Source: Escherichia coli (lineage in GTDB: Bacteria; Pseudomonadota; Gammaproteobacteria; Enterobacterales; Enterobacteriaceae). Taken from it: a stretch of DNA of 64,000 nt. Position numbers and translations under genes: made by a program. The notes beneath the pieces are model-generated. The model did no database searches and was not told the origin of the DNA. It was given only the letters and a program-made list of their open reading frames with translations. The DNA is taken from the NCBI RefSeq assembly GCF_044324875.1, contig NZ_CP172185.1, one strand, 5' to 3'. This document shows positions 4,555 through 41,719 of this stretch, in pieces. Numbering within the stretch: position 1 is the stretch's first letter; each line of letters opens with the position of its first letter.

Positions 4555-5476
4555 TGTGCAGCCGCCACGCTAATTGTTCGAAATAACGTTGCTGATCTTG
4601 CCGTGCTTTCAGTGCCTCTTCCAGTGAACACTGGACAAAATGAATCGGCTGACCGAGCGGAATTTGCGCCAGATGGTACATATCAGCCTCAATGATACAG
4701 GCAATACGCGGATAACCACCCGTGGTCTGTGCGTCGTTCATTAACACAATGGGCTGCCCGTTATGCGGCACCTGCACCACACCCGGTAACAAACCGTGAG
4801 ATAACAGTTCGCGATCGGTGGTGCGTTTTAAAATTTGCCCCTGTAAGCGATAGCCCATTCGGTTACTTTGCGAGCTAAGCTGCCAGGGCGAACGCCAGAA
4901 TGCATCCTGCGAGGCGCGATCGAACTCATGATATTCCGGCCCCGGCAAGGCGCGAATGCGGTTGCCCCACAGCAACTGTTTAACGCCCTGCGCTTCCATA
5001 AAATCACGCTTCGATTTGCCCATCGGAAGTCGGTCACCATCCTTCAGTAAACGGCCTTCCAGCCCGCCAATCCCCACTTTGAGATCGGTGCTGCATGACC
5101 CCATTACCGGCGGAACATCAATACCACCCGCGACCGCCAGATAACTGCGCATCCCGTGCTGCGGGCGTTTAAGCGTTAAACGCTGGCCTGCTTTCATCGG
5201 CAATCGCCAGCCAGTCCAGACGGCATTATCATCCAGCCGCGCTTCGCAACCTGCCCCCGTCAGGGCAAACCACCCATCAGTTTCGAACTCTACCGTTAAC
5301 TGACCGAGCGTGATCTCCAGCGCGGGGGCATTGGCGTCATTACCCACCAGCAGGTTAGCAATGCGTAACGCAGGCATATCCAGTGCGCCGCAGTGGCTGA
5401 TACCCGACTGGCGAAAACCGTGACGACCGCCATCCTGCACAGTGGTATACATGCCCGCACGAATAATCTTCAGCAT
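4544..5476 (-). CDS. pxpC: 5-oxoprolinase subunit C (allophanate hydrolase subunit 2-like)
   Basis: 310-aa ORF overlapping its neighbours on both sides; conserved operon context. Confidence 0.85.
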
Positions 5477-6979: not shown

Positions 6980-8644
<1,665 letters not shown>

Positions 8645-36328: not shown

Positions 36329-37082
36329 ATGACCATTAAAAATGTAATTTGCGATATCGACGGCGTGCTGATGCACGATAACGTCGCCGTACCGGGTGCA
36401 GCGGAATTTTTGCACGGGATTATGGATAAAGGCCTGCCGCTGGTGTTGCTGACCAACTATCCTTCGCAGACCGGGCAAGATCTGGCGAACCGCTTTGCCA
36501 CTGCCGGTGTCGATGTACCTGACAGCGTGTTTTATACCTCTGCGATGGCGACCGCCGATTTCCTGCGTCGCCAGGAAGGCAAGAAAGCGTATGTGGTGGG
36601 CGAAGGCGCACTGATTCATGAACTGTACAAAGCCGGTTTCACTATTACCGATGTGAACCCTGATTTTGTGATTGTTGGCGAAACGCGTTCCTACAAACTG
36701 GGACATGATGCATAAAGCAGCCTATTTCGTCGCTAACGGTGCACGTTTTATCGCCACCAACCCGGACACCCACGGGCGCGGTTTTTATCCGGCGTGTGGT
36801 GCGCTGTGTGCGGGGATCGAAAAAATCTCCGGACGTAAACCGTTCTATGTTGGTAAGCCGAGTCCGTGGATCATCCGCGCAGCATTAAACAAAATGCAGG
36901 CGCATTCGGAAGAAACGGTGATTGTCGGCGATAACCTGCGTACCGATATTCTGGCGGGCTTCCAGGCCGGTCTGGAGACGATTCTGGTACTCTCCGGCGT
37001 TTCGTCGCTCGACGATATCGACAGTATGCCATTCCGCCCCAGCTGGATTTACCCATCGGTCGCCGAAATTGACGTTATCTGA
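36329..37082 (+). pseudogene. nagD: HAD-family UMP phosphatase NagD/UmpH, interrupted by a +1 frameshift
   Basis: Two overlapping ORFs (36329..36715 and 36672..37082) cover the N- and C-terminal halves of one HAD protein; the frame changes in an AAA run at about 36695-36697. Confidence 0.7.
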
Positions 37083-37133: not shown

Positions 37134-38442
<1,309 letters not shown>

Positions 38443-38758: not shown

Positions 38759-40423
38759 ATGTGTTCAATTTTTGGCGTATTCGATATCAAAACAGACGCA
38801 GTTGAGCTGCGTAAGAAAGCACTCGAGCTGTCACGCCTGATGCGTCATCGTGGCCCGGACTGGTCCGGTATTTATGCCAGCGATAACGCCATTCTCGCCC
38901 ACGAACGTCTGTCCATTGTTGACGTTAACGCGGGGGCGCAACCTCTCTACAACCAACAAAAAACTCATGTGCTGGCAGTAAACGGTGAAATCTACAACCA
39001 CCAGGCATTGCGCGCTGAATATGGCGATCGTTACCAGTTCCAGACCGGGTCTGACTGTGAAGTGATCCTCGCGCTGTATCAGGAAAAAGGGCCGGAATTT
39101 CTCGACGACTTACAGGGCATGTTTGCCTTTGCCCTGTACGACAGCGAAAAAGATGCCTACCTGATTGGTCGCGACCATCTGGGGATCATCCCACTGTATA
39201 TGGGCTATGACGAACATGGTCAGCTGTATGTGGCCTCAGAAATGAAAGCCCTGGTGCCGGTATGCCGCACGATTAAAGAGTTCCCGGCGGGGAGCTATTT
39301 GTGGAGTCAGGACGGCGAAATCCGTTCTTATTATCATCGCGACTGGTTCGACTACGATGCGGTGAAAGATAACGTGACCGACAAAAACGAGCTGCGTCAG
39401 GCACTGGAAGATTCCGTTAAAAGCCATCTGATGTCTGATGTGCCTTACGGTGTGCTGCTATCTGGTGGCCTGGATTCCTCAATCATTTCCGCTATCACCA
39501 AGAAATACGCAGCCCGTCGCGTGGAAGATCAGGAACGCTCTGAAGCCTGGTGGCCGCAGCTGCACTCCTTTGCTGTAGGTCTGCCGGGTTCACCGGATCT
39601 GAAGGCAGCCCAGGAAGTGGCAAACCATCTGGGCACTGTGCATCATGAAATTCACTTCACTGTACAGGAAGGTCTGGACGCCATCCGCGACGTGATTTAC
39701 CACATCGAAACCTATGATGTGACCACTATTCGCGCTTCAACACCGATGTATTTAATGTCGCGTAAGATCAAGGCGATGGGCATTAAAATGGTGCTGTCCG
39801 GTGAAGGATCTGATGAAGTGTTTGGCGGTTATCTTTACTTCCACAAAGCGCCGAATGCCAAAGAACTGCATGAAGAGACGGTGCGTAAACTGCTGGCCCT
39901 GCATATGTATGACTGCGCCCGTGCCAACAAAGCGATGTCAGCCTGGGGCGTGGAAGCACGCGTTCCGTTCCTCGACAAAAAATTCCTCGACGTGGCGATG
40001 CGCATTAACCCACAGGATAAAATGTGCGGTAACGGCAAAATGGAAAAACACATCCTGCGTGAATGTTTTGAAGCGTATCTGCCTGCAAGCGTGGCCTGGC
40101 GGCAGAAAGAGCAGTTCTCCGATGGCGTCGGTTACAGTTGGATCGATACCCTGAAAGAAGTGGCGGCGCAGCAGGTTTCTGATCAACAGCTGGAAACTGC
40201 CCGCTTCCGCTTCCCGTACAACACACCGACCTCAAAAGAAGCGTATCTGTACCGGGAGATCTTTGAAGAACTCTTCCCGCTTCCGAGCGCCGCTGAGTGC
40301 GTGCCGGGCGGCCCGTCCGTCGCGTGTTCTTCCGCTAAAGCGATTGAGTGGGATGAGGCGTTCAAGAAAATGGACGATCCGTCTGGTCGTGCGGTTGGCG
40401 TTCACCAGTCGGCGTATAAGTAA
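38759..40423 (+). CDS. asnB: Asparagine synthetase B (glutamine-hydrolysing)
   Basis: ORF 38678..40423; start MCSIFGV (N-terminal Cys nucleophile) gives 554 aa; SGGLDSS PP-loop motif. Confidence 0.95.
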   Translation: MCSIFGVFDIKTDAVELRKKALELSRLMRHRGPDWSGIYASDNAILAHERLSIVDVNAGAQPLYNQQKTHVLAVNGEIYNHQALRAEYGDRYQFQTGSDCEVILALYQEKGPEFLDDLQGMFAFALYDSEKDAYLIGRDHLGIIPLYMGYDEHGQLYVASEMKALVPVCRTIKEFPAGSYLWSQDGEIRSYYHRDWFDYDAVKDNVTDKNELRQALEDSVKSHLMSDVPYGVLLSGGLDSSIISAITKKYAARRVEDQERSEAWWPQLHSFAVGLPGSPDLKAAQEVANHLGTVHHEIHFTVQEGLDAIRDVIYHIETYDVTTIRASTPMYLMSRKIKAMGIKMVLSGEGSDEVFGGYLYFHKAPNAKELHEETVRKLLALHMYDCARANKAMSAWGVEARVPFLDKKFLDVAMRINPQDKMCGNGKMEKHILRECFEAYLPASVAWRQKEQFSDGVGYSWIDTLKEVAAQQVSDQQLETARFRFPYNTPTSKEAYLYREIFEELFPLPSAAECVPGGPSVACSSAKAIEWDEAFKKMDDPSGRAVGVHQSAYK

Positions 40424-40437
40424 GAAATGCGGTACTG

Positions 40438-40463
40438 CCCCGGAGAAATCCGGGGCTGTTTTA
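40438..40463. terminator. Hairpin between convergent asnB and the 145-aa ORF
   Basis: ccccgg-agaaat-ccgggg followed by ctgtttta. Confidence 0.55.
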
Positions 40464-40464
40464 G

Positions 40465-40902
40465 TTATTGAGCTGCTTGTTGATTCTGATATGCAGTAAG
40501 GAAATGTTCCGGGTTTGCCACATCACTGTTTGACAACTCATCACTGTAGGCCACCGACCAGGTCGCCTGCTCATCCGGAATATGCAGGCTGCCATTCCCC
40601 TCTTTCAGGCGTAATAACTCAAAAGATTTGCCCTTAATTACGGCGGTATAGGATTTTTCACCTTCCTGTAATGCTTTCACTTTACAGCGAAAAATATGGC
40701 CATCGATGTCATTATCAACATGCGATACCTGAATGAGGGCTTCATTAGAGGCTTTCGGCCCTATCCGCATCATCCACACCACAGCGCCTTCCTGCCCACG
40801 ATAGCCAAAAACATATTTACCGATTTCCGGTTTGACCGTATCGGCAAACGCAGATTGCATAAGTAATAACGCACCCATCAGCGCCGTCATAAAACGCAGC
40901 AT
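40465..40902 (-). CDS. Hypothetical exported protein (145 aa, signal peptide)
   Basis: N-terminal MLRFMTALMGALLLMQSAFA-DT signal peptide; no family recognised. Confidence 0.55.
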   Translation of the reverse strand: MLRFMTALMGALLLMQSAFADTVKPEIGKYVFGYRGQEGAVVWMMRIGPKASNEALIQVSHVDNDIDGHIFRCKVKALQEGEKSYTAVIKGKSFELLRLKEGNGSLHIPDEQATWSVAYSDELSNSDVANPEHFLTAYQNQQAAQ

Positions 40903-41165
40903 AGTATTCCCTCAATAAATCGCCTGAAGTGGTAGCAGAGATGCAGGCGTAGCGATCCCTGCCCTGTCCTGTTGCAACGGGCCAGTATTTCATAGATTAA
41001 TTTCCCACCACTATTGTTGAATTCCGAATTTCATCCTGTATGACAAAAGAATGGCTGTAGGGTGGGAAAAAAACACAAAGTAAACAATAATTGACGAATA
41101 TAGCGCCACGCTGTTCGCAACCTAACCAAACAGTCACTTTCGAGCAATTTTCCTTGAAAAAGAGG

Positions 41166-41194
41166 TTGACGCTGCAAGGCTCTATACGCATAAT
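41166..41194 (+). promoter_or_regulatory. Promoter of the tRNA operon (sigma70 -35 TTGACG, 17-bp spacer, -10 CATAAT, GC-rich discriminator)
   Basis: ttgacgctgcaaggctctatacgcataatgcgcccc about 45 bp upstream of the first tRNA. Confidence 0.5.
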
Positions 41195-41235: not shown

Positions 41236-41312
41236 GGCTACGTAGCTCAGTTGGTTAGAGCACATCACTCATAATGATGGGGTCACAGGTTCGAATCCCG
41301 TCGTAGCCACCA
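41236..41312 (+). tRNA. metT: tRNA-Met (elongator, anticodon CAU)
   Basis: 77-nt cloverleaf ggctacgtagctcag...ccacca with anticodon loop ctCATaa. Confidence 0.9.
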
Positions 41313-41321
41313 TCTTTTTTT

Positions 41322-41406
41322 GCGGGAGTGGCGAAATTGGTAGACGCACCAGATTTAGGTTCTGGCACCGCAAGGTGTGCGAGTTCAAGTCTCGCCTCCC
41401 GCACCA
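41322..41406 (+). tRNA. leuW: tRNA-Leu (anticodon UAG)
   Basis: 85-nt class II tRNA gcgggagtggcgaaattggtagac... with long variable arm; anticodon TAG. Confidence 0.9.
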
Positions 41407-41429
41407 TTCACCAGAAAGCGTTGTACGGA

Positions 41430-41504
41430 TGGGGTATCGCCAAGCGGTAAGGCACCGGTTTTTGATACCGGCATTCCCTGGTTCGAATCCAGGTACCCCA
41501 GCCA
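41430..41504 (+). tRNA. glnU: tRNA-Gln (anticodon UUG)
   Basis: 75-nt tggggtatcgccaagcggtaaggcaccggtttTTGata... Confidence 0.9.
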
Positions 41505-41519
41505 TCGAAGAAACAATCT

Positions 41520-41596
41520 GGCTACGTAGCTCAGTTGGTTAGAGCACATCACTCATAATGATGGGGTCACAGGTTCGAATCCCGTCGTAGCCACCA
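41520..41596 (+). tRNA. metU: tRNA-Met (elongator, anticodon CAU), second copy
   Basis: Identical in sequence to the first tRNA-Met. Confidence 0.9.
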
Positions 41597-41644
41597 AATT
41601 CTGAATGTGTCGAATGCGTTCGGCAAATTCACAAACCAATTTGT

Positions 41645-41719
41645 TGGGGTATCGCCAAGCGGTAAGGCACCGGATTCTGATTCCGGCATTCCGAGGTTCG
41701 AATCCTCGTACCCCAGCCA
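41645..41719 (+). tRNA. glnV: tRNA-Gln (anticodon CUG)
   Basis: 75-nt tggggtatcgccaagcggtaaggcaccggattCTGatt... Confidence 0.9.

Follow-up and report, generated by a model that had tools for sequence, protein, structure and literature searches.

A lineage-variable Escherichia coli gene between asnB and a tRNA operon encodes a predicted exported beta-barrel protein

The MliC/PliC proteins are defined by a beta-barrel together with two motifs that engage lysozyme, SxSGAxY in loop 4 and YxxxTKG in strand 6 (PMC5507604), while two further barrels, Neisseria ACP and Brucella PhiA, lack these motifs and are still hydrolase inhibitors (PMC5507604, PMC8334348). The present analysis concerns a gene of 145 codons that lies between asnB and a tRNA operon in a 64,000-nucleotide stretch of Escherichia coli DNA (RefSeq assembly GCF_044324875.1, contig NZ_CP172185.1; hereafter the window), and whose product is predicted to be exported and to fold as a small beta-barrel. 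Orphan exported proteins of this kind are common in pan-genomes. The sequence of the gene is itself already present in hundreds of RefSeq genomes as a ‘hypothetical protein’ (WP_000943487.1 in strain CE10, WP_000943484.1 in ST131); what is new here is that it encodes an exported barrel protein under selection, that the family has no profile in the curated libraries, that K-12 carries a deletion stump of the gene, and that at least two lesions contribute to its loss in E. coli. High confidence attaches to what the gene is, to its export signal and fold, and to how it evolved. The reading frame is as follows.

40465..40902, minus strand: the 145-amino acid (aa) gene, 145 codons and a stop from an ATG start (open reading frame list, ratio of nonsynonymous to synonymous substitution rates (dN/dS), homologues and annotation elsewhere).

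The length of this frame is no evidence of function, because antisense open reading frames of up to 211 aa occur nearby. Judged by comparison of sequences, it is nevertheless a genuine, selectively maintained gene, as argued by its substitution pattern, its orthologues in other genera, the conservation of its Shine-Dalgarno site and upstream blocks and the confident fold predicted for its product. Pairwise Nei-Gojobori estimates for the window allele, the ST131 allele, OkiPb01715 (a divergent E. coli), a further E. coli contig and three orthologues from Pseudocitrobacter gave dN/dS values of 0.04-0.12 at dS of 0.17-0.8, and the Pseudocitrobacter orthologue at the syntenic site retains 70% protein identity with dS saturated. 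Relative to E. albertii, the 145-aa protein is 90% identical and AsnB 99.6%, which indicates that it changes faster than AsnB, yet is clearly under purifying selection. Re-reading of the sequence returned the coordinates, length, N-terminus and mature sequence that an earlier note on this DNA, made from the letters alone, had quoted.

The gene order ubiF, tRNA operon, 145-aa gene, asnB, nagD, nagC is common to E. albertii, a Salmonella-labelled assembly and Pseudocitrobacter, so that the comparison of the asnB-tRNA interval proposed in the earlier note finds the gene at the same locus in all three; close homologues also come from E. marmotae and E. ruysiae. Within E. coli, a 1-kb query spanning the interval was matched in 5424 of 5426 complete genomes, in full in 985 and in the rest over exactly 57% of its length, and the missing 431-bp segment, used as a query in its turn, recovered the same 985 genomes, with one copy in each and always on the chromosome. 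The carriers comprise 414 genomes whose allele is about 99-100% identical to that of the window (among them CE10, an O7:K1 meningitis strain), 567 at about 97.2% (for example O25b:H4-ST131 and JJ1887) and 4 others at about 88%. Three features define the lesions found in the other alleles.

40549..40979, no strand: deleted segment of 431 bp, comprising codons 1-118 and 77 bp of upstream sequence (alignments and genome counts).
40465..40548, minus strand: surviving 3' remnant in deletion strains, codons 119-145 and the stop (84 nt), with the terminator hairpin described below also kept.
40654..40658: T5 run (A5 on the coding strand, in codons G81-E-K-S84), site of the one-base loss that gives the frameshifted allele.

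About 82% of complete E. coli genomes, K-12, CFT073 and O157 among them, lack the 431-bp segment, and alignment with a K-12-like strain places its ends at the two copies of a 5-bp direct repeat GGCCA (40549..40553 and 40980..40984). The remnant was matched by tblastn in deletion strains (residues 117-145). MG1655 has no annotated feature between asnB and metT, remnant included, in keeping with the statement in the earlier note that no protein-coding gene is known here in K-12; the suggestion made there that the gene might be strain-variable is likewise borne out, with the refinement that the variation reflects loss of an ancestral gene and not acquisition. The K-12 remnant and the cross-genus synteny together point to presence as the ancestral state and absence as the derived one, and by these alignments the gene is placed at the asnB/metT locus already in the common ancestor of Escherichia, and at the same place in Pseudocitrobacter.

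It might be argued that the frame is spurious, or that it is a recently acquired islet or the cargo of a mobile element, since K-12 and most other E. coli lack it, its GC content (46.6%) is somewhat below that of its neighbours (53-57%), and its locus tag in CE10, CE10_RS29920, is out of series, which suggests that early annotations overlooked it. Against this stand a dN/dS of about 0.1, the confident predicted fold, a family of 225 clusters, synteny in E. albertii, the Salmonella-labelled assembly and Pseudocitrobacter, and the 3' 84 nt of the gene that are still found in K-12. The gene was not found in phages or true plasmids, the apparent ‘plasmid’ matches being mislabelled chromosomes, and neither flanking repeats nor an integrase accompany it. 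Acquisition as an islet is ruled out by the K-12 remnant together with the cross-genus synteny, and the spurious or acquired origin as a whole, to which we give only a very small probability, is effectively excluded.

A second lesion is seen among the carriers themselves. The frameshift allele, which differs from that of the window by the loss of one base from the T5 run, occurs in CB6837, MS14387, 300033 and PK8275 and is flagged ‘frameshifted’ in RefSeq, and the 430-nt form was present in 10 of 60 carriers in an evenly spaced sample. From these alignments, E. coli is losing the 145-aa gene by at least two routes, through independent lesions, the 431-bp deletion and the frameshift in the A5 run. 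The identical 431-bp junction is found on two flanking haplotypes, the flanks being of the window type in K-12 and of the ST131 type in CFT073 (phylogroup B2); the deletion has thus either recurred at the GGCCA microhomology or been transferred as an allele between backgrounds by recombination.

In its local layout the gene is a monocistronic unit that stands alone, with an upstream region and a terminator of its own; its further elements are these.

40909..40913, minus strand: Shine-Dalgarno sequence GAGGG, 6 nt 5' of the ATG (sequence and upstream alignment).
40914..41036, minus strand: upstream non-coding region, presumptive promoter and leader (alignment across genera).
40437..40456, no strand: GC-rich hairpin of 20 nt, canonical intrinsic terminator of asnB and possible weak bidirectional terminator for the 145-aa gene.

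The plus-strand gene asnB stops at 40423, and the strands and coordinates agree with the convergent arrangement that had been described. The hairpin (-17.9 kcal/mol, z = -4.1) occupies most of the 41-nt spacer that separates the two stop codons. That it serves both genes, as the earlier note has it, is plausible, but a canonical T-tract is found on the asnB (plus) side alone, whereas on the strand of the 145-aa gene the stem is followed by AGUACCGCAUUUCUU, so the shared terminator would be weaker in that direction. On the other side, 333 bp of non-coding DNA separates the gene from the tRNA genes, which start at 41236 in the order Met-Leu-Gln-Met-Gln behind a promoter, TTGACG-17-CATAAT, at 41166..41194.

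Part of this non-coding interval is itself conserved. Within Escherichia, conservation of the region 40914..41036 exceeds that of synonymous sites, and alignment of Escherichia with Pseudocitrobacter shows three blocks kept across genera: AGGATGAAATTCGGAATTCAACAATAGTG at about 41036..41008, GAAATTAATCTATGAAATACT at about 41004..40984 and CAGGGCAGG-N10-CCTGCA at about 40966..40942. The ribosome-binding context, TTATTGAGGGAATAnTATG, is the same from Escherichia to Pseudocitrobacter. The blocks include GAAATTC-G-GAATTC, a tandem motif, and GCAGG-N10-CCTGC, an inverted repeat; nothing in the region was recognisable as an operator or promoter consensus already known, and a sigma-70 scan called no promoter for the 145-aa gene on the minus strand, only the known promoter of the tRNA operon. 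A structured RNA element in the leader was considered and rejected, as the leader folds no better than its shuffles (z = 0.27). Across the interval, Rfam matched only the tRNA, plus RcsR1 below threshold over the asnB terminator. In K-12, the distal upstream blocks persist and now face the gene stump.

The product comprises two parts.

40843..40902, minus strand: signal peptide, residues 1-20, MLRFMTALMGALLLMQSAFA, with predicted signal peptidase I cleavage after A-F-A and no lipobox.
40468..40842, minus strand: mature protein, residues 21-145, with a conserved N-terminal RPE-x-GKY-type motif, a predicted barrel and a C-terminal helix.

The ‘classic’ signal peptide of the earlier note is, on inspection of the sequence, of the Sec type: a positively charged n-region (MLR) is followed by a 12-residue hydrophobic core, FMTALMGALLLM, and by QSAFA before D21, an n-h-c arrangement with small residues at positions -3 and -1 and no lipobox cysteine. 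A hydrophobic, signal-like N-terminus is likewise found in 89 of 101 single-domain relatives, and a lipobox in none of the 101. In the AlphaFold2 model, built on an alignment of 16 sequences (pLDDT 87.9, pTM 0.77), the signal segment, residues 2-20, appears as a helix of low confidence outside the fold, residues 32-119 form an eight-stranded antiparallel beta-barrel (88 residues, strands of 5-9 residues), and residues 131-144 form a C-terminal helix, with conservation at N130-P-E-H-F-L-T-A-Y138. Strands 3 and 4 are joined by an acidic loop of the DxDxDG type, D63-N-D-I-D-G68, of which D63, D67 and G68 are widely kept in the family and D65 is not. The mature protein has a single cysteine, C73. 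The product is thus predicted, at the level of a model, to be a Sec-exported, compact eight-stranded barrel with a strongly conserved C-terminal helix.

Structural comparison of this model with solved proteins gave the following scores.

D-aminopeptidase barrel domain (1ei5): 9.2.
Brucella PliC (4mir): 8.9.
Salmonella PliC (3oe3): 8.5.
PhiA (7dpy): 7.8.
Neisseria ACP (6gq4): 6.8.
E. coli MliC (2f09): 5.9.
BtaiB, a type VI secretion system (T6SS) immunity protein (9jdd): 5.8.
Avidins (several): 6-7.
Outer-membrane barrels (several): 6-8.

Foldseek returned no PDB match at E <= 0.001, the best being the C-terminal barrel of meningococcal factor H binding protein (fHbp), with an E-value of about 0.01 and a TM of about 0.4, and PliC, with an E-value of about 0.09. 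The same search against AFDB50 matched nothing outside the protein's own family, whose members there are all uncharacterised and come from Atlantibacter, Yersinia, Pantoea, Brenneria, Xanthomonas, Pseudomonas, Dyella, Rhizobium and Bacteroidota. On the evidence of the model, the fold class is known, yet no relative has been solved.

At the sequence level the family is small, and neither Pfam nor NCBIfam has a model for it. Among 1.84 billion cluster representatives, a profile search gave only 225 clusters at 50% identity (E <= 0.001), almost all of 135-160 aa with a signal-like N-terminus, and 47 close homologues of the 145-aa protein were found. The family consensus is RPEVGxY..Y.G.EG..VW..R.GP....EALVQ..GIDH.WDG.I........Y.....G.....L......GEL.LP.........Y...LS...NPEHFLT.YL.Q. 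Pfam gave no match for the 145-aa protein even at E <= 10 and none on the domain in 17 diverse relatives; NCBIfam gave none for the protein, PADLOC and PHROGs none that was significant, and sequence and profile searches of the PDB only noise (E > 0.1). A literature search by accession or peptide string found no paper, and the earlier description of the protein as uncharacterised therefore withstands the protein and profile searches that had been proposed as its check. The names of relatives in databases are all ‘hypothetical’ or ‘uncharacterized’ save for stray automatic labels (DUF4367, Ivy, lipoprotein), none of which is supported by the tests. DUF4367, carried by the UniRef entry of the Pseudocitrobacter orthologue, was rejected on the Pfam results for the protein and the 17 members just given and on a precomputed Pfam column that is empty throughout.

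In a few relatives the domain is part of a fusion, and these proteins show that the barrel can serve outside the cytoplasm as a module joined to signalling domains. One fusion (P0086) has an N-terminal class III cyclase, a transmembrane segment and then the barrel domain, and another (P0128) has a TIR domain that matches PADLOC TIR models, again followed by a transmembrane segment and the barrel; a eukaryote-like protein (P0106) combines a receiver domain with the barrel, a fourth fusion (P0137) places the barrel after a Tudor/SH3-like domain, and in P0051 the barrel domain is duplicated in tandem. About a dozen relatives of about 270 aa have a C-terminal domain of no recognised type that contains cysteines. 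Some relatives are eukaryotic-looking, namely P0106, an 842-aa AFDB match from the yeast Blastobotrys and an entry from the nematode Diploscapter; they could reflect horizontal transfer or contamination.

Outside the asnB locus the family is found at varied positions. Superficieibacter has a paralogue-like copy, 52-54% identical, between fhuE and ptsG (two loci, match at 8001..8423), and Atlantibacter has a protein of the same type in AFDB; the former indicates that the family occupies different intergenic sites in different Enterobacteriaceae. An enterobacterial metagenome-assembled genome carries a member between amiC and mltA (5001..5447), beside a tRNA-Met gene, which makes it the second case, with E. 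coli, of a gene of this family adjoining a tRNA-Met locus. In Pectobacterium, Pseudomonas, Mixta and Intestinirhabdus the genes alongside are unrelated (GGDEF, RimK, methyl-accepting chemotaxis proteins, NorB-like genes), and the 13 genomic loci found by a degenerate-peptide scan, together with several metagenomic contigs, show no conserved neighbour or partner. On one Bacteroidota-like metagenomic contig, the homologue stands in a row of small open reading frames that includes an Imm11 immunity gene.

With regard to function, we tentatively favour a model in which the mature protein would be a soluble, non-enzymatic binding module of the periplasm. It would bind its partner stoichiometrically through the acidic, DxDxDG-like beta3-beta4 loop and that side of the C-terminal helix which is conserved, and the partner would most likely be a protein, the module blocking an envelope-attacking enzyme that enters the periplasm, as PliC, MliC, ACP and PhiA block lysozymes or peptidoglycan hydrolases. 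This non-enzymatic binder or inhibitor is favoured because the barrel is small, because of the proteins that resemble it best in structure, because the gene stands alone and can be dispensed with, and because the loop and helix are conserved and exposed; the small size of the barrel makes protein binding, or a filled core, plausible. A binding module is also consistent with the placement of the domain after a transmembrane segment in the cyclase, TIR and receiver-domain proteins and with its tandem occurrence, with a gene that stands alone without conserved neighbours, as do ivy, mliC and pliC, and with the array containing Imm11.

A ligand, metal or sensor role is nearly as likely as a protein-binding one. 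The protein may be a small-ligand or sensory barrel of the calycin, avidin or lipocalin-like kind, acting as a periplasmic carrier, scavenger or sensor, for example with Ca2+ at the DxDxDG loop or with a hydrophobic or cofactor ligand within the barrel, and the calycin-like architecture, the loop itself and the fusions to signalling domains all fit such a role. The short strands and the 88-residue barrel, however, leave scant space for a cavity of the lipocalin type, no lipocalin or avidin Pfam profile is matched, the middle aspartate of DxDxDG is not kept across the family, and no transporter or metabolic gene adjoins the locus. On balance this reading is possible and is held with less than even confidence.

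The Imm11 context raises the further alternative of an orphan immunity protein directed against an interbacterial toxin that acts in the periplasm (a T6SS or contact-dependent inhibition effector such as a peptidoglycan hydrolase, phospholipase or pore-former), kept where the attacker is met and lost elsewhere. That context is confined to the one metagenomic contig; no toxin gene is adjacent in E. coli, where the neighbours are asnB and the tRNA operon, or in the 13 genomic loci; the position is a conserved housekeeping one and not an effector-immunity island; neither PADLOC nor Pfam gave an immunity-family match; and strong purifying selection at genus-level divergence is atypical of fast-evolving immunity genes. 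We regard it as unlikely, the least probable of the functional readings. Hardly more probable is a structural or chaperone-like periplasmic factor, an accessory of assembly or stress without a specific inhibitory or ligand role, for which it can be said that Ivy is annotated as a periplasmic chaperone besides being an inhibitor and that the cross-genus upstream blocks suggest regulated expression. Nothing specific speaks in its favour, no known chaperone family is matched, and most E. coli do without the gene.

Returning to the binder or inhibitor model, a bolder form of it would have the 145-aa protein found a new family of periplasmic inhibitors (of lysozyme, peptidoglycan hydrolases or some other envelope attacker), with the acidic loop and C-terminal helix as a new recognition surface, and would have its retention in extraintestinal pathogenic lineages (ST131, neonatal-meningitis CE10), as opposed to its deletion in K-12, O157 and many commensals, contribute to differences in resistance to hosts or competitors. 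This extension is speculative, and we consider it doubtful. Were a periplasmic inhibitor or sensor to be confirmed, E. coli would have a lineage-specific factor of envelope defence or sensing. This family of exported proteins has been missed by all curated libraries, though about a thousand complete E. coli genomes, those of pandemic ST131 among them, encode a member; as K-12 has only a stump of 27 codons, research in the standard laboratory background has never included the gene. Whatever the function, the locus is a clean case of gene loss by microhomology deletion, and its three states (present, absent, frameshifted) provide a simple marker of E. coli lineages.

Other features of the window surround the locus. 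An IS110-family element of 1280 bp (37161..38440; transposase frame 37353..38333, 326 aa) is inserted in a repetitive extragenic palindrome (REP)-like sequence between nagD and asnB, about 320 bp upstream of asnB, with both junctions ending in CT; the site is empty in CB6837. Near-identical copies in RefSeq are named ‘IS110-like element IS621 family transposase’, and related copies occur in 2244 of 5426 E. coli genomes, with a median of 5 per genome. nagD (umpH, 36329..37082) is broken into frames of 128 and 136 aa by an extra A at about 36695, the sequence there being CCTACAAACTGG versus CCTAC-AACTGG in CB6837, and is either a frameshift pseudogene or the result of a homopolymer sequencing error. 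The tRNA operon (41236..41719) has 5 genes, Met, Leu, Gln(UUG), Met and Gln(CUG), compared with 7 in K-12, CE10, ST131, CFT073, CB6837 and Pseudocitrobacter; the window lacks one copy of each tandem tRNA-Gln pair, presumably lost through recombination between duplicates.

The described barrels and inhibitors compare with the 145-aa protein as follows. Bacterial lipocalins, avidins and streptavidins, and fatty acid-binding proteins have longer strands and larger barrels, and the 145-aa protein shows no match to their Pfam profiles and no sign of a cavity or ligand. The C-terminal barrel of fHbp and the D-aminopeptidase or penicillin-binding protein-like barrel domains (1ei5, 2qmi, 4whi) score under confident thresholds without sequence similarity, and are domains within larger proteins, unlike the 145-aa protein. 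Ivy (PF08816) shows no relationship: hhalign with E. coli Ivy gave a probability of 0.5%, Pfam gave no match, the CKPHDC loop is lacking from the 145-aa protein, and the ‘Ivy’ label on one AFDB relative is without support.

There remain the inhibitors with which this account opened. The surface-exposed Neisseria ACP (6gq4) has a disulphide linking beta1 and beta8, and Brucella PhiA (7dpy) has both genetic and functional links with the autolysin SagA, whereas the 145-aa gene has no nearby partner gene; neither is related to the 145-aa protein in sequence. Membership of the MliC/PliC family is ruled out by the missing profile match and motifs. The Pfam MliC profile PF09864 matched neither the 145-aa protein (E <= 10) nor any of 17 diverse members, hhalign of E. 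coli MliC/YdhA against a 52-sequence family profile aligned the signal peptide alone (probability 10%), and a regular-expression search found the SxSGAxY and YxxxTKG motifs in 0 of 243 family sequences, the 145-aa protein having only Y85-TAVIKG91, a hairpin turn in which the K and T positions are not conserved. What the 145-aa protein is predicted to match is the eight-stranded antiparallel barrel and the export of MliC/PliC, and it differs from them in its additional conserved C-terminal helix, its conserved acidic beta3-beta4 loop and its freedom from disulphides. If the proposed role proves true, it would represent a new sequence family beside the barrels of the PliC and ACP types.
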